A DNA stretch of 64,000 bases from an uncultured Bacteroidota bacterium (GCA_903847585.1 CAINEC010000162.1:33427-97426), one strand, 5' to 3'; shown: positions 6,105 through 28,322, numbered from the stretch's first letter. The notes: generated by a model not told the origin, from the letters alone. Made by a program: numbers and translations.

Positions 6105-7766
6105 ATGATGCTTCGAAATAACTTCTTTTATTCATTGGTCTGCCTCTTTTTAGGGATTACTTTTTCTTCATTAGGACAAAATAACAAGCCCGATTTTAGA
6201 TCGCCGGTGGATATTCCGATTTCACTGGCAGGCAATTTTTGTGAAATCAGACCCAATCATTTTCATTCGGGTATCGATATCCGAACAAACGGAAAGGAAG
6301 GCTTGCCCATCTTCGCAATTGGTGATGGATATGTTTCAAGAATCAAGGTGAGTCCAACAGGATTTGGAAGAGTCGTTTATATCAACCATCCCGAAGGATA
6401 TACCTCCGTTTATGCCCATTTATCTTCTTTCAATTCTCCGTTGGATGCTTTTGTTGACTCCATTCAAAAGGCCAACGAATCATACGATATGGAAGAATTT
6501 CCCGATGCTAAAAGATTCAAAGTCAAAAAAGGGGATTGCATAGGATTCAGCGGTAACTCTGGTTCGAGTTCATCGCCACATCTACATTTCGAAATTCGTG
6601 ATTTGAATTCGGAAGAGCCATTGAATCCGCTGGCATTTTTAAATTATGAAGATTCTATTGCACCAGTTATTGAACGGATTAGAATAGTCCATATCAATTT
6701 AGATAAAGTTTATCAACCAATAACTGATATCTCAACTTCAGATTATTTAATAACTGTAATCACTGGCATTGATTATGGGGATTATTATTTTGAATTAAAA
6801 GGAAGTGACAATAGTGGAGATTCGTATATGAACTTTTATTCCATTAACGTAATGACAAATAAAGGCGATACACTATTTGATTGTAAGTTCGACCGATTTA
6901 ATTTCGACGAAACAAGAATGGTAAATTCATTTATTAATTACTCTTCATTAGTAAACGATAAAGAAGAATGGCAAAGACTTTACAAGCTACCCTCCAACAC
7001 AGCTACACTATTTAAAAACTGTATTTCGAAACCACTTACCATTTCGGATGATAATGATACAATATATTTTAAAGTTACTGACTATAGTGGCAATTCAACA
7101 GTTGAACAAGTCATACTATACGGATTTAAACAAGAAGAAATAATAGGAGATTATAAAGAATCAATTTGCAGATATTACAATGAAAGTTTTACCATTCCTT
7201 TTAAATATGGATTCATGAATATCCCTGCTAGTGGAATAGATCAATCACTTTGTTACGAGTTAACCGATTACGATACGCTTCCGGATTCAACAACCTTTTT
7301 AATTGGTGATCCGTCTGTCCCTTTAATCAAGAATGCAACGGTGGTGATTCAAAAAAAACTGGGCACTAACTTTTGGCTTTGCGAACGAAATTGGAAGAAT
7401 GAATTGACCGGAACCTCCTTCAAGTTAGACAGTGCGAAATACGGTTATCAAACAAGCATTAAAAAAATGGGATGGTACTCGGTAGAATGCGATAGTGTAG
7501 CACCACAACTCATAAAAGTAATATCAGAAAAAGACCCTATCATCAAGGAACAGAAAAACATATTATTAAAAATCAGCGATGATATTTCAGGAGTTAAAAA
7601 AGCCAATGTATTCATTAATGGAAATTTCCTTCCATGCGAATTTGATTTGAAACGTAGCAGCGTTGTGATTAAAGGAAGTCAACTCAAAAAAGGTGATATC
7701 ATCCAATTAAAATTAATCGACTATCAAGGAAATACTAATTTAATAGAAAATGTCGATTGGAATTGA
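6105..7766 (+). CDS. M23 family metallopeptidase (exported)
   Basis: Signal peptide and motifs HFHSGIDI, YAHL, GNSGSSSSPHLHFE. Confidence 0.9.
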   Translation: MMLRNNFFYSLVCLFLGITFSSLGQNNKPDFRSPVDIPISLAGNFCEIRPNHFHSGIDIRTNGKEGLPIFAIGDGYVSRIKVSPTGFGRVVYINHPEGYTSVYAHLSSFNSPLDAFVDSIQKANESYDMEEFPDAKRFKVKKGDCIGFSGNSGSSSSPHLHFEIRDLNSEEPLNPLAFLNYEDSIAPVIERIRIVHINLDKVYQPITDISTSDYLITVITGIDYGDYYFELKGSDNSGDSYMNFYSINVMTNKGDTLFDCKFDRFNFDETRMVNSFINYSSLVNDKEEWQRLYKLPSNTATLFKNCISKPLTISDDNDTIYFKVTDYSGNSTVEQVILYGFKQEEIIGDYKESICRYYNESFTIPFKYGFMNIPASGIDQSLCYELTDYDTLPDSTTFLIGDPSVPLIKNATVVIQKKLGTNFWLCERNWKNELTGTSFKLDSAKYGYQTSIKKMGWYSVECDSVAPQLIKVISEKDPIIKEQKNILLKISDDISGVKKANVFINGNFLPCEFDLKRSSVVIKGSQLKKGDIIQLKLIDYQGNTNLIENVDWN

Positions 7767-7829
7767 TAAGGGTCATTCGCTTACTATGATGTAAGTCATT
7801 TTAAAATGTTATTCGTCGCTGTACTTTTG
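7764..7829 (+). promoter_or_regulatory. tandem FNR-like boxes plus -7 promoter element driving a short transcript
   Basis: TGATAAGGGTCA (7764-7775), TGATGTAAGTCA (7787-7798), 23-nt gap, TACTTTTG (7822-7829). Confidence 0.8.
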
Positions 7830-7834
7830 ATTTC

Positions 7835-7921
7835 GAGATGGAGACATCCCAACGTACTAGAATAATAGTACCATAGTTTACTGGTTTGGTTAGAGCTGTC
7901 GAAGGACAGCTCTACTTTTTT
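7835..7921 (+). ncRNA. candidate small RNA (or 12-aa peptide mRNA) under Crp/Fnr-type control
   Basis: Has its own promoter upstream. Hairpins GATG-GAGA-CATC and GTACTA-GAATAA-TAGTAC, a single-stranded UGGUUUGGU linker and a perfect 10-bp terminator. The next gene has a separate -7-like element (TACATTCG, 7925-7932). Confidence 0.65.
7891..7921 (+). terminator. intrinsic terminator
   Basis: TAGAGCTGTC-GAAG-GACAGCTCTA followed by CTTTTTT. Confidence 0.9.
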
Positions 7922-7942
7922 CCGTACATTCGCAATAGAATT

Positions 7943-8665
7943 ATGCTTGTTTTATTTTACTTTTTAGCGTTAGTGGCAGAGGTTGTTGGAACGATAGGTG
8001 GGTTTGGCTCCTCGATTTTTTTCGTACCTATTGCTTCTTTCTTTTTTGAACCGAAACTAGTATTAGGCATCACTGCATTTTTTCATGTGTTTAGTAATAT
8101 TTCAAAACTCATTTTGTTTGGCAAGCATATCAAAATGAAAATCGCCATCAAGTTTATTATTCCGAGTGTGATTGGAGTTATCATTGGAGCATTATTAATC
8201 GCTAATCAGTCGGGAGAACTATTTTCATTAGCCATCGGAATCTTCCTCATTCTATTTGCGCTATACTTTTTGATATTCCCTTCTCAAGCAATTGAAGCCT
8301 CTAATAAAAACATAATAATAGGAGGGAGCAGCGCAGGATTTTTAGCCGGATTTCTTGGAACAGGCGGAGTCATTCGTGGAGCAGCAATGGCAGCTTTTAA
8401 TCTCGAAAAGAATTGCTTTGTTGCTACCTCTGCATTTATCGATTTATTCGTTGATATTAGTCGTTCTGCAATCTACTATCAAAATGAATTTATCGCTCGT
8501 GATAAATTGTATTATATCCTTCCGTTGATTTTAATATCATTTGCTGGAAGCTATATTGGGAAATTAATTCTTGAAAAATTAAACCAAGATAAGTTCAGAA
8601 GAATAGTTTTAATTTTAATTTCGATAATGGGAACGGTATCGGTAATTCGATTTATATGCCAGTAA
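7943..8665 (+). CDS. sulfite exporter TauE/SafE family membrane protein
   Basis: GTIGGFGSSIFFVP and GFLAGFLGTGGVIRG repeats, about 8 TM segments. ATG at 7943 preferred because the longer ORF would start inside a terminator. Confidence 0.85.
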   Translation: MLVLFYFLALVAEVVGTIGGFGSSIFFVPIASFFFEPKLVLGITAFFHVFSNISKLILFGKHIKMKIAIKFIIPSVIGVIIGALLIANQSGELFSLAIGIFLILFALYFLIFPSQAIEASNKNIIIGGSSAGFLAGFLGTGGVIRGAAMAAFNLEKNCFVATSAFIDLFVDISRSAIYYQNEFIARDKLYYILPLILISFAGSYIGKLILEKLNQDKFRRIVLILISIMGTVSVIRFICQ

Positions 8666-9654
8666 AGGATAAAAATTTCAGGACAAAAGTAAATGCCATT
8701 TCTGTGGTGCTGGCACTTTCTGTTTTGATCATGCTCATCAAATTCGTTGCATATTACGTTACGAAATCGAATGCATTATTATCAGATGCCCTTGAATCGT
8801 TTATCAATATTGCCACCAGCTCTTTTACGCTTTACAGTATTTATTATTCTGCAAAATTAAAAGACCATGATCATCCTTACGGACATGGAAAAATTGAATA
8901 CCTCGCTGTAGGATTTGAAGGTGCCTTGATTTTAGGAACGGGCGTTTACATTTTATATGAAGCCTTTAATCATTTCATCCATCCAGAGCCTTTGCAAAAT
9001 GTAGATCTAGGAATTATGATTACTGCATCCACTGGACTATTCATGTATTTCATTGGATCGTTTCTTAAAAAGAAAGGGCGCGAGCTTGATTCCATTACAC
9101 TCGTTGCAGATGGAGAACATTTTCACTTGGATACGATAACCAGCATCGCACTAATTGTTGGATTAGTTTTATATCACTTAACTAAGTTACCATGGATTGA
9201 TCCATTGCTGGCTGCTTTATTAGCTGTACATATTATGATGAGTGGTTACAAGCTAACAAAAGAATCCATTGATCGTTTATTGGATAAAGCCGATTTCGAT
9301 ACGATACAAAATGTAGTAAACTCGTTAAATAAAAATCGTAAAGCAACTTGGATAGACATTCATAATTTACGAATGCAGCGATTCGGGAATATTATTCATA
9401 TCGATTGTCATCTGACGCTTCCATTTTATTACGCACTCGATCAAGTGCACAATGAAATTAAAAATTTAGAAGCTGATATCAATAAAGACTTCAATCAAGA
9501 AGTTGAATTTTTTGTTCATACAGATCCTTGTAATGAAGAATTCCCTTGCAAGCTATGTAATGTAGAAGAATGTGCTTTTCGAAAGTTCGAACACCTTCAA
9601 ACAGTTGATTGGGATATTAAAAATCTAATGGCTAATAAAAAGCATCAGCTGTAA
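8656..9654 (+). CDS. cation diffusion facilitator (CDF) transporter
   Basis: SNALLSDALES, DHDHPYGHGKIEY and ADGEHFHLD motifs, plus a C-terminal dimerisation domain with a Cys-rich tail. Confidence 0.92.
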   Translation: MPVKDKNFRTKVNAISVVLALSVLIMLIKFVAYYVTKSNALLSDALESFINIATSSFTLYSIYYSAKLKDHDHPYGHGKIEYLAVGFEGALILGTGVYILYEAFNHFIHPEPLQNVDLGIMITASTGLFMYFIGSFLKKKGRELDSITLVADGEHFHLDTITSIALIVGLVLYHLTKLPWIDPLLAALLAVHIMMSGYKLTKESIDRLLDKADFDTIQNVVNSLNKNRKATWIDIHNLRMQRFGNIIHIDCHLTLPFYYALDQVHNEIKNLEADINKDFNQEVEFFVHTDPCNEEFPCKLCNVEECAFRKFEHLQTVDWDIKNLMANKKHQL

Positions 9655-9696: not shown

Positions 9697-12600
9697 ATGG
9701 CATTATTTCAAGAGGCGATTATAAAAAAGCATTTGAGCTTAATTGATGAAAAAATCATTGATGCAGCTTTTAGTGAATATAAGCGCGTTTACTCGCCCGA
9801 CAAAATAAAAAATATCAGAGTTGCCAAGGAAGAGCAATACCAGGAAGGATTTATTAAAGATGTATTTGGATCTGTGTTGGGATACTCTGTTTATCCAGAG
9901 CATCCGTATAATATCGAAACAGAGAAGAAGAATGAATCAGATGCTAAAAAAGCCGATGGTGCTATATTAAAGGATGAAAAAGTAGTTGGGGTTATTGAGT
10001 TAAAAGATAATAAAACTAAAAATCTTGATGCCGTAAAGGATCAGGCCTTTGGGTATAAGCACAATCATAAAGAATGTAGTTATGTCATCTCTTCTAATTT
10101 TCATAAGCTGCGTTTTTATATTGATGATGCCACCGATTACGAAGAGTTTGATTTATACAATTTAGACAAAGAAACCTTTAAGCGTTTTTACCTCTATCTG
10201 CGCAAAGAAGGTTTATTAGATAAGAACTTACCTAAGCTTCTTCGACAAGAAACGAAGTTTCACGAAGAAGAGATTTCTAAAAAGCTTTATAAGGATTACT
10301 CTAATTTCAAACGAAGCTTTTACGAGAATGCGGTAAAGAATAATCCGCAGCACGATAAACTTATCTTATTTAAGAAAAGTCAGAAGTTTTTAGACCGAAT
10401 TTTATTTTTATTGTTTGCAGAAGATAAAGGTTTAGTTGGAACTAATTCAATTGTGAACATAGTAGATAAATGGGCGGAAGCCGATGATGATTATTACCAA
10501 CCACTCTACGAAATGGTGAACAAATATTTTGGTCACTTGTATCGAGGATATACTTATCAGAAAACAGGTGAGGTGATACCTCAGTTTGGTGGTGAATTGT
10601 TTGCGCCGGATGATGTTTTAGAAACCCTCAAAATTGATGATGAGATTTTGAAGAATGATTTATTGGTGCTTTCTAAATACGATTTTAATACAGATGTAGA
10701 TGTAAATATCCTGGGACATATTTTTGAACATTCCTTGAATGAAATTGATGATGTAGAGGCGGAGCTACGTGGGGAACAGTTAGACAAAACTAAAAGTAAG
10801 CGTAAGAAAGACGGGGTGTTTTACACTCCTAAATACATCACTAAATACATTGTTGATAATACCCTTGGTAAATTATGTGCTGAGAAAAAAGCGGAGTTAC
10901 AATTAGACCAGGACATTGCCATATTTGAATATCAGAAAGCAGATGGCAAGCTGAATGAAAAAGGAAGAGAATTATTTGAACGATTAAATAATTATAAAGA
11001 CTGGTTGCTGACTATTAAAGTATGTGATCCCGCATGTGGAAGTGGAGCCTTCTTAAACCAGGCACTTTCTTTTTTTATTGAAGAACATAAGTTGGTGGAT
11101 GATATTATAGCAGAACTAACCAATACGCCTTTACGTTTATTTGATACCGACTTGCAAATTTTAGAGAACAATATTTTTGGTGTTGACATTAACGAAGAAA
11201 GTATTGAGATTGCTAAACTCTCCTTATGGTTACGCACGGCACAGCCAGGTAGAAAACTTTCTGATTTATCCAATAACATTAAATGTGGGAACTCATTAAT
11301 TGATGATCCTGCAATAGCTGGCGACAAAGCATTTAATTGGGAAAAAGAGTTTCCGATTGTTTTTAATAAAGGTGGGTTTGATGTGGTGATTGGAAATCCG
11401 CCGTATGTGAGAAAGCAAGGCTTAATGGAACATTATCCAGAAATGTGCACTTATTACGAAAAGACTTTTAAAGCAGCCACAGCTAATTATGATGTGTACG
11501 CAATTTTCATGGAAAGGAGCTTCAACTTAATTAATGAAAAAGGTGTAGTTTCTTTTATTCTTCCACATAAATTTTTAGTTACAGATTTTGGTGTTGGCAT
11601 TCGTTCGTTTTTTAAAGAAAATACTTGTGTGGAATCATTAATTCATTTTGGCTCCCATTTAGTTTTTAATGATGCATCTACCTATACTTGTATTATTAAT
11701 CTGACAAAAACAAATAAGCAAAAGGTGTTATTTAAAAAATTAATTCCAGAAGAATTATTGACACAATTTGATTGGGATTATATGTACTATAAAAATCTTA
11801 CATCAAACAATTGGGATTTGCAAAGTGAGAAAGTTTTTGATGTCATATCAAAACTAAATACACAACCTTATAAAGTTGAAGATGTTTTTGATAAGATTTT
11901 TCAAGGAATAGCCACCAGCTTGGATGAGGTTTATGTTTTTCAAGGAAAAAAGGAGGGTAATATTATTAAAGGATATAACTCTAAATATGATTATCATTTT
12001 GAAATAGAGTCTGGACTTGTGAAGCCATTTATTAAAGGTAATCAACTATCCAGAAATTGTAATCCTCAAATAACTAATTATGTTGTTTTTCCATACATTA
12101 TTGAATCTGATTCACCACTTTCAATGAATGAAAGCTTTATTAAAAGTAATTTCCCTTTAGGTTATTCATATTTGAAATATTTTGAAACTCAAATAAGAGG
12201 ACGTGAAAACGGCAAAATGGATAGAGAGGATGATTGGTTTCTCTATATATATCCTAAGAATTTAACCAAGTTCCAACATCCTAAAATTATGACTCAAGAA
12301 ATTTCTTTGGGTTGTAATATGACTTACGATAAGGATGGGGTATATTATCATCCAACAACAATTTATTCATTTGTAAAAAATGAGAAATTTAAAATAGATG
12401 ATAAATTTTATCTTGGAGTACTTAATTCCAAAGTAATGTGGTTCTTTTTGAAGAATACAGGTACTGAATTAGGGGGTGGTTATTTCAGATTCAAAACAAA
12501 TTATCTCAAACCGTTTCCCTTACCAGCAATTCCCCAAAATGCTGATGAAATTATATTCAAAGTTCAATTTGCATTAGAAATAAATAAAGAATCTCAATCA

Positions 12601-12912
12601 ATTGAATCGCGATTTACCAACTACTTCGTAAATCAACATAATATTTCAAAACTTACAGGCAAACTCGAAAGTTGGTATGAACTCTCTTTCACCGAATTCA
12701 TCAATGAACTCAACAAAGCCATCAAAGCAAATAAGGGCACAGCATTAACCAAGAAAGATGAATTTGAGTGGATGGAATTGTTCGAGGAGAACAAGAAAAA
12801 AGTACTAGAACTCAAAGCTCAAATAGACCAAACCGACCGAGAGATTGATCGTATGGTGTATGAGCTGTATGAATTAACGGAAGAGGAGATACAGATTGTA
12901 GAGAATAGTTGA
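9697..12912 (+). CDS. Type IIG restriction-modification enzyme (Eco57I/TaqI-C-like; fused nuclease, N6-adenine MTase and TRD)
   Basis: N-terminal nuclease motif KKADGAI...VIELKD, GVFYTP, motif I DPACGSGAFL, motif IV GNPPY, C-terminal LGVLNS...GGYFRFK..YL..FPLP. Confidence 0.9.
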   Translation: MALFQEAIIKKHLSLIDEKIIDAAFSEYKRVYSPDKIKNIRVAKEEQYQEGFIKDVFGSVLGYSVYPEHPYNIETEKKNESDAKKADGAILKDEKVVGVIELKDNKTKNLDAVKDQAFGYKHNHKECSYVISSNFHKLRFYIDDATDYEEFDLYNLDKETFKRFYLYLRKEGLLDKNLPKLLRQETKFHEEEISKKLYKDYSNFKRSFYENAVKNNPQHDKLILFKKSQKFLDRILFLLFAEDKGLVGTNSIVNIVDKWAEADDDYYQPLYEMVNKYFGHLYRGYTYQKTGEVIPQFGGELFAPDDVLETLKIDDEILKNDLLVLSKYDFNTDVDVNILGHIFEHSLNEIDDVEAELRGEQLDKTKSKRKKDGVFYTPKYITKYIVDNTLGKLCAEKKAELQLDQDIAIFEYQKADGKLNEKGRELFERLNNYKDWLLTIKVCDPACGSGAFLNQALSFFIEEHKLVDDIIAELTNTPLRLFDTDLQILENNIFGVDINEESIEIAKLSLWLRTAQPGRKLSDLSNNIKCGNSLIDDPAIAGDKAFNWEKEFPIVFNKGGFDVVIGNPPYVRKQGLMEHYPEMCTYYEKTFKAATANYDVYAIFMERSFNLINEKGVVSFILPHKFLVTDFGVGIRSFFKENTCVESLIHFGSHLVFNDASTYTCIINLTKTNKQKVLFKKLIPEELLTQFDWDYMYYKNLTSNNWDLQSEKVFDVISKLNTQPYKVEDVFDKIFQGIATSLDEVYVFQGKKEGNIIKGYNSKYDYHFEIESGLVKPFIKGNQLSRNCNPQITNYVVFPYIIESDSPLSMNESFIKSNFPLGYSYLKYFETQIRGRENGKMDREDDWFLYIYPKNLTKFQHPKIMTQEISLGCNMTYDKDGVYYHPTTIYSFVKNEKFKIDDKFYLGVLNSKVMWFFLKNTGTELGGGYFRFKTNYLKPFPLPAIPQNADEIIFKVQFALEINKESQSIESRFTNYFVNQHNISKLTGKLESWYELSFTEFINELNKAIKANKGTALTKKDEFEWMELFEENKKKVLELKAQIDQTDREIDRMVYELYELTEEEIQIVENS

Positions 12913-19434: not shown

Positions 19435-19499
19435 CAAATCTATTTCGAGAGTGGGATTAATTAAATGACCGCTATTAGGGTGATTTATGATAATTGTCA
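19435..19499 (-). promoter_or_regulatory. tandem FNR-like boxes plus -7 element for ccoS-NOQPGH
   Basis: -7 element TAGATTTG (minus, 19435-19442), 23-nt gap, boxes at 19466-19477 (TGACCGCTATTA) and 19488-19499 (TGATAATTGTCA). Confidence 0.8.
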
Positions 19500-22089: not shown

Positions 22090-22109
22090 CAAATACATAA
22101 TTGAACAAC

Positions 22110-22511
22110 ATGTTATCCGAAACAAAAGCGTCGAGCTCGCTACACCTTTACATCGATTTAAACTCAAGACTTTCTGAAATCCAAAGAGAGTTCAATTCTT
22201 ATTTCCCATTCTTAAAGATTGAATTTTTTAAAGCACCTCATAAAATCGGACAAGGATTAAAGAAAGATCTAATCATCAATTCGAATAAATTAGTGAAGGA
22301 TTGTTCAACTATCAAAAAGGGTGGTGTAATTGAATTTACCAATATCACTCCTGTAAGCGATTTAGAAACGAAATTTTTCAAAGACTTTAAATTATCTGTG
22401 CAGGTATTTAGAAAGGCAGGTAGGGTATGGTTAGAAACAACTGCAACAGATAGCTGGACCTTAGCGCAACAAAATGAAGAAGGCGCTGAATTCTCAACGC
22501 CATCTAAATAA
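22110..22511 (+). CDS. hypothetical protein (133 aa) in the microaerobic cluster
   Basis: Clean ORF containing FPFLKIEFF and VQVFRKAGRVWLETTATDSWTLAQQN, preceded by an FNR-like box. ATG at 22110. Confidence 0.75.
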   Translation: MLSETKASSSLHLYIDLNSRLSEIQREFNSYFPFLKIEFFKAPHKIGQGLKKDLIINSNKLVKDCSTIKKGGVIEFTNITPVSDLETKFFKDFKLSVQVFRKAGRVWLETTATDSWTLAQQNEEGAEFSTPSK

Positions 22512-22524
22512 TTTGATCTTCCTT

Positions 22525-23583
22525 TTAAGCTTTTAAATGACGAAGCTTTTCATCATTGATGATTTTAATTTTTCCGTCTTTAATCTCAATTAACTTTTCT
22601 TCTTTAAAATCACTAAGCGTTCTAATCAACGACTCTGTAGCTGTCCCAACAATATTGGCTAAATCTTCACGAGCGATTGCCATAGCAAAATGAGATGCAT
22701 CAGTCGTCTTGTACTTATCTTGTAATAAAATCAATGCCTCGGCAGTTCTCTTTCTAACAGAACTGTAAGCCAATTCTAATAGACGTTCTTGCTTATCGAT
22801 AACACCCTTTGTTAAAAAACGAATGAAGTTCTTCGTAACGGCATGGTTGCTATAAACCAGATTGAAAAATTCTTCCTTAGGAATAAAAATCACTTCTGAC
22901 TCTTCTAATGTTTCAGCACTTTCAATATAAGGCTTTTCTTCTAACAGTGATACATATCCGAAGAAATCACCTTCTTTCAACAAATCAGTGATCAACTCTT
23001 TACCATACTCATGCGTCTTAGTAATTTTTACTTTACCTGACTTCACATAATAAATTCCGTTAGGGTAGTGGTGCTCCTGATAAATCTTTTCTTTCTTTTT
23101 ATAATGATTCACTTTTTTGCCATCCAGGAATTTCTTCAAGGCTGCATCACCAGCCACATCACTGATGAAATGACTTAGTCCATCAAAGTCAGGTTGATAA
23201 TCTTTCTTAAGTGCATCAGCTCTTTTCAAACGACTTTCAATAGCATTTAATAGCTCCGTCTTATCAAAAGGTTTGGTGATATAATCATCGGCACCTAAAT
23301 CCATTCCTTTACGCATATCGCTACGTTCTGCTTTTGCTGTCAGGAAGATAAATGGAACTGAGTTTAAATCGGTATCCTTGCTCAGTAAATGTAAAACTCC
23401 ATAGCCATCTAAACCTGGCATCATGATATCACAGATAATCAAATCTGGTTTTTCCTTACGAGCCATTTCAACACCATCTTTTCCATCAGGTGCTGTACAA
23501 ACTGTATAATTCGCCAGCTCTAAAATCTCAGCTGTATTTTCTCTTACATCCAGATTGTCTTCAATTAATAAAATCTTTTTCAT
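22525..23583 (-). CDS. response regulator: REC domain fused to Crp/Fnr cNMP-binding and HTH domains
   Basis: REC (LLIEDN, CDIMMP, FLTAK, KPF), cNMP-like (YYVKSGKVKI, GDFFG) and Crp-HTH (REDLANIVGTATESLIRTLSDF). Confidence 0.93.
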   Translation of the reverse strand: MKKILLIEDNLDVRENTAEILELANYTVCTAPDGKDGVEMARKEKPDLIICDIMMPGLDGYGVLHLLSKDTDLNSVPFIFLTAKAERSDMRKGMDLGADDYITKPFDKTELLNAIESRLKRADALKKDYQPDFDGLSHFISDVAGDAALKKFLDGKKVNHYKKKEKIYQEHHYPNGIYYVKSGKVKITKTHEYGKELITDLLKEGDFFGYVSLLEEKPYIESAETLEESEVIFIPKEEFFNLVYSNHAVTKNFIRFLTKGVIDKQERLLELAYSSVRKRTAEALILLQDKYKTTDASHFAMAIAREDLANIVGTATESLIRTLSDFKEEKLIEIKDGKIKIINDEKLRHLKA

Positions 23584-23587
23584 AGCA

Positions 23588-24829
23588 TTAATTTATTTGA
23601 TTCGGAAAAGTGATCTCGATCCTTGTTCCTTCGTTTAGTTTACTAGTTAAATGTAAATGACCTTTCATAATGTCAACATAGTTGCCCACAATATGTAACC
23701 CTAATCCTGTACCTTGAATATTAAATGCATTTTTTCCTCTATAGAAACGTTCAAACAAATGCTTCAAATCTTCCTCGCTAATTCCAATTCCCTGATCTTG
23801 CACCACCATTTTTATTTCATTGGAATTCACATCTGCATCCAATGTTATAGACTTGCCTTCTGATGAAAATTTAATAGCATTACTTAAAAGATTAAAAAGA
23901 ATATTCTTGATTAGCTTAGCATCAAGAAACACCAAATTATCACCATGATAATTAATAACTATTTCCTGTCCTGCTTTTGTATTCTGACGCATATCACTCG
24001 CAATTTCATTCATCAGAATATTCAAATCGAACATACTCATATCTGCATGAATCTTTCCTTCTTCTAATTTACTGATAGATAGAAAATCACTTAAGATATC
24101 ATTCAGGTTATTAACTGAAGACTGAATTCGTTTGATATGCTTTTGCTTTTTCTCTTCTTGCTCGGGAGTTTTATATTCTGAAATCAAAACAGCAGAAGAA
24201 AGGATAGTGGTGAGTGGTGTACGAAACTCATGCGATGCCATTGAAATAAATCGCGACTTTAAATCATTCAGGTCTTTTTCTTTTTCGAGGGCCATACTTA
24301 ATTCTGATCTCGACTTCTCTAATTCCAAAATTGCTTCTTGCAAAACGCTGGTACGATCAGAAACCTTACGTTCTAAATCTTCATTCGACTTTTGCAAGGT
24401 AAGTGCAATCTGCTCAAGCTCTAATTGTTTTTCCCTTACAGAAGCTTCAATCTTCTTTCTAACAGAAATATCAATCAAAAAGGCAATGATGTATTTGCGA
24501 TCATCCTTAAAAATAGGACTCAAGCTAATCTCTATTGGGAACAAGGTGCCATCTTTTCTCAATGCATGTAAATCTAAACCTAATCCCATCGGACGAGCAT
24601 GTGGCTTATCGATATACGATTTACGATGATGTTCATGATGTCCTTTGATGTTCTTAGGTACTAATACATCAATCGATTCATTTAATAATTCATTCGACTC
24701 ATATCCGAACATCTTACATGCTGCTGGATTCATCAATTGAATCAATCCACTTTCATTGGAAATAATAATCCCTTCAGTAGCATGATTGAACAGGGCATCG
24801 AGTAACTCGACTTTCTCAAAATTCTGCAT
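23588..24829 (-). CDS. cytoplasmic PAS histidine kinase, FixL-like
   Basis: PAS (MNPAACKMFGY...LVP...HHEHHRKSY...RKDGTLFPIEISLS), HisKA (ASHEFRTPL) and HATPase (NLLSNAIKF, DQGIGI, GTGLGL). No TM segment. Confidence 0.92.
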   Translation of the reverse strand: MQNFEKVELLDALFNHATEGIIISNESGLIQLMNPAACKMFGYESNELLNESIDVLVPKNIKGHHEHHRKSYIDKPHARPMGLGLDLHALRKDGTLFPIEISLSPIFKDDRKYIIAFLIDISVRKKIEASVREKQLELEQIALTLQKSNEDLERKVSDRTSVLQEAILELEKSRSELSMALEKEKDLNDLKSRFISMASHEFRTPLTTILSSAVLISEYKTPEQEEKKQKHIKRIQSSVNNLNDILSDFLSISKLEEGKIHADMSMFDLNILMNEIASDMRQNTKAGQEIVINYHGDNLVFLDAKLIKNILFNLLSNAIKFSSEGKSITLDADVNSNEIKMVVQDQGIGISEEDLKHLFERFYRGKNAFNIQGTGLGLHIVGNYVDIMKGHLHLTSKLNEGTRIEITFPNQIN

Positions 24830-28284: not shown

Positions 28285-28322
28285 GTCCAATCAACCAAAA
28301 ACAATACAACCAAAATAATCCA

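Follow-up and report, generated by a model that had tools for sequence, protein, structure and literature searches.

Between an M23-family peptidase gene and tauE, a stretch of 64,000 nucleotides (nt) from an uncultured Bacteroidota bacterium (GCA_903847585.1, CAINEC010000162.1:33427-97426; "the window" below) carries a short unit that is the remnant of an hsp20 gene, encoding a small heat shock protein (sHSP), whose coding region has been deleted. Its position, promoter, C-terminal codons, 3' untranslated region (3'UTR), and terminator are shared with intact hsp20 genes of a sister genus, and its pattern of variation among the closest genomes is that of a structured RNA. Judging from its sequence and those of its relatives, the unit probably specifies a stand-alone noncoding RNA, probably one induced by low oxygen; the whole scenario, in which this RNA also acts in trans through its single-stranded stretch, is, in our estimate, evenly poised. 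The original prediction, based on the window alone, had described the unit as a candidate oxygen-regulated small RNA (sRNA) with a role like that of FnrS, and overlooked that it derives from hsp20 and that its single-stranded stretch is an hsp20 stop codon followed by a 3'UTR motif. In what follows, G000 is the genome of the window, g1 its genus, g8 the sister genus, and f1 the family.

An informative locus for the origin of the unit is L108, in the g8 genome G077, where the stop codon of an intact hsp20, encoding a protein of 148 amino acids (aa) that is confirmed by Pfam HSP20 at 1.3e-24, overlaps the conserved 18-nt core. When the family was searched with the G077 protein, orthologues with 54-100% identity were found in nine g8 genomes, and the intact gene occupies the same slot there between the M23 gene and the downstream operon. 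The g8 coding sequences close with I-K-V-S-stop; TTTGCAGGTTTrG comes next, then a terminator, and then a TAnnTTCG box. In the promoters of these genes, the M23 stop codon is immediately followed by a TGAy-N4-rTCA box, and there are in addition a second half-site and a TAnnTTTG box that is frequently the identical TACTTTTG. The 3'UTR motif UUUGCAGGUUUGG is common to g8 hsp20 and the G000 unit, and the terminators of the two are homologous, with the core (A/G)GCUG...CAGC(C/U) in common. Since g8 hsp20 has the same promoter, motif, terminator, and TAnnTTCG box, the G000 unit is to be regarded as an hsp20 promoter fused to the last codons, the 3'UTR, and the terminator of that gene.

The junction can be traced at the level of single codons. 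The single-stranded stretch at positions 7872-7890 comprises the former hsp20 stop codon (UAG, 7874-7876), which in G077 is the stop codon of the intact Hsp20, and the 3'UTR motif UUUrCwGGUUUGG, whereas the 3' arm of hairpin P2 derives from the last hsp20 codons (I-I-V or I-V-V). Read in frame, the remnant gives R-T-R-I-I-V-P-stop in G000 and R-E-I-I-V-V-S-stop in a second group of g1 genomes (group 2), to be compared with the (P)REIK(V/I)S-stop of Hsp20 C termini in the family. These ~8 terminal codons are all that is recognizable of the coding region, and the HSP20 domain (PF00011) has no match anywhere in G000, a genome that is 99% complete. Hfq and RRM_1 domains were not found in it either; the absence of any sHSP is unusual for a free-living bacterium.

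The coding region has been lost more than once. In the M23 tree, g1, with the remnant in 8 of 8 genomes, and g8 form separate clades (100/100 support), and the two g8 genomes with a remnant pair inside g8 (94/89), among genomes with intact hsp20. Because the g8 remnants are nested in this way and a remnant cannot regenerate a gene, there must have been at least two independent losses of the open reading frame (ORF), in each of which the 3' module was kept. The M23 branch lengths of G088, G078, and G077 are 1.3-1.4 changes/site, and yet their 3' modules are 87-89% identical. In the nine g8 genomes with intact hsp20, the same 3' end and terminator belong to a coding gene; as the ORF is absent from G000, the unit there would be a 3'UTR-derived sRNA in a historical sense only. 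No internal promoter or processing was evident for the intact hsp20 of G077, the only genome looked at in this respect.

G/U-rich 3' flanks containing GGTT make up 20 of the 28 distinct 3' flanks of hsp20 genes in family f1 (L171-L200), compared with 241 of 2376 genes of G000, and may represent an undescribed 3'UTR element specific to small heat shock genes. A general feature of terminators was considered and rejected, as GGTT is present in 30 of 416 windows upstream of terminators and in 40 of 409 controls. Thermometer-like pairing of the 5' and 3'UTRs within hsp20 mRNAs was discarded as well: cognate pairs have a mean of -9.57 kcal/mol and noncognate pairs one of -10.37 kcal/mol, with 1858 of 2000 permutations as low or lower. 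The literature searched holds no account of an hsp20 3'UTR element or of an hsp20-derived sRNA in Bacteroidota, the search having covered papers without their supplements, which might list sRNAs of Flavobacterium or Bacteroides.

That the unit is real beyond chance is confirmed by its retention in relatives with a structured pattern of variation. When the spacer was compared with 60 relatives by BLAST, four clear homologues turned up, each of them in g1, and the covariance model R1 added diverged copies in the g1 genomes G011, G006, and G009 and in the g8 genomes G088 and G078. The unit is thus present in all 8 g1 genomes with an assembled M23-tauE junction; outside this count are G002, whose contig stops inside tauE, and G003, G008, and G010, which gave no tauE orthologue with the query used. 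The unpublished genome G067 underlies none of the conclusions. In the five closest genomes (group 1), 100% of the columns in the P1 and P2 stems are invariant, as are 18 of the 19 columns (95%) of the single-stranded stretch, compared with 0-75% in the 5' leader, linker, and loops, while the terminator stems vary in a compensatory manner. Upstream, 7 of the 8 columns of the -7 box are invariant in these genomes, all five retain the palindrome ATGAy-N4-rTCAT of box 2, and the boxes together with the -7 box are retained in 8 of 8 g1 genomes. The background to these figures is saturated divergence: in tauE, G000 agrees with G007 or G001 at 31-38% of the four-fold sites.

Beyond the closest genomes, the structure is kept while its sequence changes. 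In group 2, P1 is exchanged for a different 6-bp hairpin at the same position, and in P2 the partner arm changes to match (GUACUA/UAGUAC versus GUGAAAUUA/UAGUUUCAU). Between the genera, the upstream hairpins P1 and P2 differ, and the 19-nt stretch is conserved. Compensatory base-pair change, the mark of a structured noncoding RNA, is found in an alignment of 11 sequences, where 14 of 20 pairs have changes on both sides, with most of the signal coming from the terminator, where 8 of 10 pairs are affected, and from P1, where 4 of 4 are; these counts have to be taken with caution, to the detriment of our interpretation, because the genomes are kin, so that independent events are overstated, and the alignment was fitted to the structural model. 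In the same alignment, 95.8% of the paired cells (100% in the terminator) can pair, compared with at most 51% when the partners are slid, and the observed values were reached by none of 500 shuffles. The minimum-free-energy fold of the G000 unit reproduces the three hairpins at -29.1 kcal/mol, against -18.6 +/- 2.9 for shuffled sequences (z = -3.6; 1 of 200 shuffles equally good), with a predicted RNA length of ~88 nt (about 7834-7921).

The family of RNAs to which the unit belongs has no earlier description and is known to date only from two genera of freshwater Bacteroidota, both uncultured. Rfam 15 gave no matches in the whole window at the gathering score (FnrS, GibS, FopS, and riboswitches included) and none with E values up to 10 in 7600-8100. 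This search and one with a covariance model had both been suggested along with the original prediction; the model found the diverged copies named above, and the helices covary. An exact-pattern scan for the 18-nt core in 185,579 species genomes, one per species, matched at least 119 stretches; of 80 inspected loci, 75 were coding or chance matches, and the five true ones (L062, L078, L096, L098, and L108) all come from the same two genera. Matches of the 3'-module covariance model R2 in other genera with intermediate E values (1e-4 to 1e-3) were rejected as generic terminators without the genes of the locus; 11 of the 13 loci concerned (L224-L236) were inspected, and the locus genes were not found on the two very short ones (L227 and L234) either.

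All elements of the promoter-to-terminator unit named in the original prediction could be found again, and their coordinates are listed in Table 1. The terminator is the sole terminator-like site in 7000-9000. The placement of the start rests on Flavobacterium psychrophilum, in which the TAnnTTTG box lies at -12 to -5 (PMC9723704); the same placement gives box 2 a center at about -41.5 and box 1 one at about -64.5. The center of box 2 (TGAT-N4-GTCA) lies 29.5 nt before the start of the -7 box, at a class II position.

Table 1. Elements of the hsp20 remnant and neighboring genes in G000 (positions counted in the window)
Feature	Coordinates	Strand	Basis or remark
M23 peptidase gene	6105-7766	+	Pfam
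Intergenic region	7767-7942		between M23 peptidase gene and tauE
FNR/FixK-type box 1, TGATAAGGGTCA	7764-7775	+	TGAY-N4-RTCA pattern scan; overlaps M23 stop codon
FNR/FixK-type box 2, TGATGTAAGTCA	7787-7798	+	TGAY-N4-RTCA pattern scan
-7 promoter box, TACTTTTG	7822-7829	+	Bacteroidota sigma-A consensus TAnnTTTG
Predicted transcription start	~7834	+	from position of -7 box
Hairpin P1, GATG-GAGA-CATC	7837-7848	+	4-bp stem, GNRA loop (GAGA or GAAA)
Hairpin P2, GTACTA-GAATAA-TAGTAC	7854-7871	+	6-bp stem
Single-stranded stretch, CATAGTTTACTGGTTTGGT (RNA: CAUAGUUUACUGGUUUGGU)	7872-7890	+	19 nt, unpaired
Intrinsic terminator	7891-7921	+	10-bp stem 7891-7914, GAAG loop, then C and T6 (U6)
Variant -7 box, TACATTCG (TAnnTTCG)	7925-7932	+	precedes tauE-CDF operon; 10 nt before tauE ATG
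TauE/SafE-family transporter gene	7943-8665	+	Pfam; neighbor, outside the RNA
CDF cation-efflux gene	8656-9654	+	Pfam; overlaps tauE end; operon 7943-9654

The promoter suggests membership in a low-oxygen regulon. In G000, TAnnTTTG is enriched 8.7-fold upstream of genes, and the spacings between FNR/FixK-type boxes and -7 boxes cluster genome-wide at 29.5-30.5 and 51.5-52.5 nt. The latter class comprises four promoters, those of ccoS/ccoN, of an operon encoding a PAS-containing kinase and a REC-Crp regulator, of an uncharacterized gene on contig C196, and of the unit itself, with box 1 at 52.5 nt from the -7 box in the unit, compared with 51.5 nt in the promoters of ccoS and of the kinase operon. 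The shared type of box and its spacing speak for the original prediction, which had the RNA induced together with cbb3. The genes for the REC-cNMP-HTH_Crp regulator and the PAS histidine kinase occupy 22525-24829 (-) and stand next to the cbb3 oxidase cluster. From these promoter sequences, we infer a FixK-like low-oxygen regulon that would include the cbb3 oxidase, the sensor kinase, the regulator, and hsp20 or its remnant. In Rhizobium, an FnrN-dependent sHSP with two anaeroboxes is microaerobically induced and coregulated with fixNOQP (PMC11784457). Given this precedent and the boxes shared with cbb3, it is plausible that the ancestral hsp20 was under low-oxygen control and that the remnant therefore is too.

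TGAY-N4-RTCA boxes in this area, at 19488, 21970, 21992, 22047, and 25134, precede ccoS/ccoN, a copper ATPase gene, an uncharacterized ORF of 136 aa (22101-22511), and the kinase operon. The combination of a kinase with a REC-cNMP-Crp fusion resembles a FixL/FixJ/FixK cascade packed into two proteins. Elsewhere in G000, contigs C3 (near 16389) and C11 (near 8354) carry nearly identical promoter regions of ~90 nt, in each of which a TGAT-N4-GTCA box is followed at 55.5 nt by a TAGTTTTG box; one copy precedes a gene for a large secreted-looking protein. These copies may stem from duplication of a regulatory region or from the assembly.

Taken together, the sequence data give the following scenario. 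In related genera, hsp20 stands between the M23 gene and a (DoxX)-TauE-CDF operon, under a promoter with FNR/FixK-type boxes like those of the cbb3 genes. Deletion of its coding region in g1 left the promoter, ~40 nt with two hairpins, the last codons and stop, the G/U-rich 3'UTR motif, and the terminator. The resulting RNA would be transcribed from the unit's own promoter whenever the Crp/Fnr-type regulator is in its active state, which is presumably the case at low oxygen. Its action in trans would be exerted by the invariant single-stranded stretch CAUAGUUUACUGGUUUGG, through pairing with mRNA start regions that are A/C-rich and lack a Shine-Dalgarno sequence or through binding of a protein. 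The same role of the 3' module is probably older, dating from its time as the 3' end of the hsp20 mRNA. Both the oxygen regulation and the action in trans are putative, being read from the sequence and its comparisons. We would advance only tentatively, as a possibility somewhat short of likely, the more specific proposal that in this family the G/U-rich 3' module of an hsp20 mRNA induced by low oxygen already was a functional RNA element and that, following at least two independent ORF deletions, the oxygen-responsive promoter and the module were fused into a structured sRNA working without Hfq or RRM chaperones.

Several results weigh against this scenario, beginning with the choice of targets. 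In a scan of 2353 start regions of G000, the best duplex reached -22.3 kcal/mol, as good or better values being obtained with 5 of 30 shuffled seeds, and the tenth-best duplex was ordinary, being reached by 8 of 30. Pairing with defined targets, of the kind expected of Hfq-dependent sRNAs, is thus not apparent from the scan, which gave no excess over shuffled seeds, and no near-complementary site (at least 15 of 18 bases) was found elsewhere in G000. Domain searches detected in G000 neither Hfq, as the original prediction had anticipated, nor an RRM_1 (RbpB-type) protein. The motif is weaker in the hsp20 of G018 and absent from those of G074 and G076. The part of the g8 remnants that can be aligned to G077 is confined to the motif, the terminator, and ~10 nt preceding the stop, with neither a box nor TAnnTTTG visible upstream, so that in these two genomes the module may be only the 3' end of the M23 transcript. 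The contigs of two metatranscriptome runs cover only 7359-7509, 7581-7882, and 8509-8700 at a depth of 2-4, give no start or end, and neither show nor exclude a discrete RNA. One 151-nt contig pair (7581-7731 and 7732-7882, depth 2) spans the 3' end of the M23 gene into the unit. As this pair crosses the presumed promoter from the M23 gene, it could reflect read-through or contaminating DNA; should it stem from RNA, transcription of the M23 gene extends to this terminator as well.

The top match in the target scan is the gene for a 149-aa membrane protein on contig C64 (83599-84048, -) with no Pfam family above the cutoff. The single-stranded stretch is complementary to the start codon of this gene and to the whole of its short 5'UTR. 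The site is kept in 4 of 4 group 1 relatives (-18.3 to -22.3 kcal/mol) and is not found in G011 (-9.5 kcal/mol, start uncertain); pairing with the C64 mRNA may be taken as a lead only. The target proposed originally, the leader of a secreted protease gene, fared differently in its two parts: the two copies of AACCAAA at 28285-28322 are there, an arrangement unique among the 2353 start regions (24 of which have one copy), but the predicted duplex, at -8.5 kcal/mol, ranks 1211th of 2353, which is the median, and this leader was dropped as a supported target. The tauE start region was likewise rejected as a pairing partner (-6.6 kcal/mol, rank 1940).

Among other explanations, one is that the remnant is kept for services at the level of DNA and termination and has no RNA function, its terminator insulating tauE-CDF from transcription of the M23 gene (formerly of hsp20); the old promoter may also feed low-oxygen read-through, with the motif merely carried along. 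Such a role would fit the lack of a target signal, the contig pair running from M23 into the unit, the g8 remnants with no visible promoter, and the fact that the terminator and the TAnnTTCG box are older than the deletion. Even so, we consider this explanation, in both its parts, unlikely, because termination needs neither an invariant 19-nt stretch nor two hairpins with fixed stems at saturated four-fold divergence, GGTT is not general before terminators, P1 and P2 have been rebuilt with other sequences at the same positions in group 2, and the boxes and the -7 box are retained throughout g1. A related idea, which places the function in cis, is that the module is a 3'-end element of the upstream mRNA (hsp20 in relatives; here that of M23 or a short remnant transcript), serving as a protein or nuclease site for stability or processing. 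The motif is always found 1-4 nt before the terminator at the transcript 3' end, the GGTT flanks are concentrated at hsp20 genes, and the same contig pair joins the M23 3' end to the unit, all of which would suit such an element. Against that, a role in the M23 3'UTR leaves the conserved dedicated promoter in g1 unexplained, hsp20 itself is absent from G000, and a test for pairing between the 5'UTR and the 3'UTR of the same hsp20 mRNA was negative, which makes a cis-acting element distinctly unlikely.

The remaining explanations concern what lies downstream and within the unit. The unit is directly 5' to the operon, in the same orientation, in every genome whatever the first gene, and the terminator ends 21 nt from the tauE ATG, a layout that would suit an attenuator or riboswitch leader gating read-through from the box promoter into tauE-CDF. 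We nevertheless regard a role as leader of tauE as very improbable. The terminator hairpins have -15 to -19 kcal/mol in 8 genomes, and the best upstream duplex with the 5' arm of the terminator, at -3.7 to -7.7 kcal/mol, lies within the range of shuffled sequences in 8 of 8; no antiterminator can form, and there is no alternative pairing to compete with termination. In relatives, a protein-coding gene ends at the same terminator, the upstream hairpins differ between genera, and no riboswitch family matched in Rfam even at E = 10. All lineages have a promoter-like box downstream of the terminator and ahead of the ATG, in agreement with the earlier statement that tauE has a -7-like element of its own: TAnnTTCG is found there in 8 of 8 g1 genomes, the boxes after the hsp20 terminators of relatives read TATATTCG, TACTTTCG, TATTTTCG, or TAATTTCG, and upstream of G000 genes this sequence is enriched 3.5-fold with the same positional peak as TAnnTTTG. 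The gene order is M23-(hsp20 or remnant)-[DoxX]-[TauE]-CDF, with tauE as the first downstream gene in g1 and doxX in g8, where G077 has no tauE. As for a micropeptide translated from the ATG at 7838 (METSQRTRIIVP in G000), all five group 1 genomes share this ATG followed by M-E-T-S, but the reading frames have 12, 12, 9, 6, and 6 codons with METS alone in common, group 2 has no such ATG, and the ATG lies inside the P1 stem, ~4 nt from the predicted start. Since indels shift the frame, a conserved peptide is excluded, and the idea as a whole is hardly credible.

Two observations on this part of the locus may be added. TAnnTTCG may be a promoter variant that is either less strong or under different regulation. 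In g8 (L039 and L041, from G088 and G078, and L108, from G077), a DoxX-family membrane protein is encoded between the terminator and tauE, and CDF is the constant member of the operon.

If the unit is a trans-acting RNA, its closest functional counterpart would be FnrS, an enterobacterial sRNA activated by FNR (Rfam RF01796). The two are alike in being small promoter-terminator units with an FNR-type site near -41.5 and a single-stranded stretch as the likely business end, and in their coregulation with low-oxygen respiration, which is putative here. They are unlike in that the unit matches FnrS in neither sequence nor structure, derives from hsp20, belongs to a host without Hfq, gave no stand-out target in the scan, and is probably controlled by a REC-cNMP-Crp fusion with a PAS kinase rather than by the iron-sulfur protein FNR. 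In its descent, it resembles CpxQ, DapZ, MicL, and SroC, sRNAs derived from a 3'UTR that have their terminator in common with a coding gene; many 3'-derived sRNAs have their seed just before the terminator. In the relatives of G000, the module likewise belongs to hsp20, of which it comprises the last codons, the 3'UTR, and the terminator, and the stretch lies just before the hairpin, whereas in G000 the parent ORF is gone and the parent promoter would drive the 3' module directly.

Within the phylum, GibS and FopS of Bacteroides thetaiotaomicron, which are bound by RbpB, come from a similarly Hfq-less background and have their seed just before the terminator, in the same place as the invariant stretch here (PMC11697453). 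They differ from the unit, which has no Rfam match, has two 5' hairpins, is found in two freshwater genera only, and stands in a genome without RRM_1. The inferred ancestral gene has its likeness in RLV_1399, the sHSP gene of Rhizobium leguminosarum, an hsp20 with two anaerobox-type sites that is coregulated with fixNOQP (cbb3) (PMC11784457); this is an alphaproteobacterial protein-coding gene that is not known to have a 3'UTR element or a remnant RNA.

The locus offers a clean and datable example of the way in which a small RNA gene can come about, a stress gene having lost its ORF while its promoter and 3' end live on under strong selection. It draws attention to a G/U-rich element, not described before, in the 3'UTR of hsp20 genes and points to a FixK-like low-oxygen regulon in uncultured freshwater Bacteroidota. 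To our knowledge, this phylum lacks Hfq, and its regulatory RNAs outside gut Bacteroides are almost entirely uncharted. Should the action in trans prove true, the unit would be a low-oxygen sRNA analogous to FnrS in another phylum, of another origin, and with no known chaperone.

Directly after the CDF gene, at 9697-12912 (+), the window encodes a single-chain restriction-modification enzyme of 1071 aa, of the Eco57I/MmeI type (type IIG/IIL).
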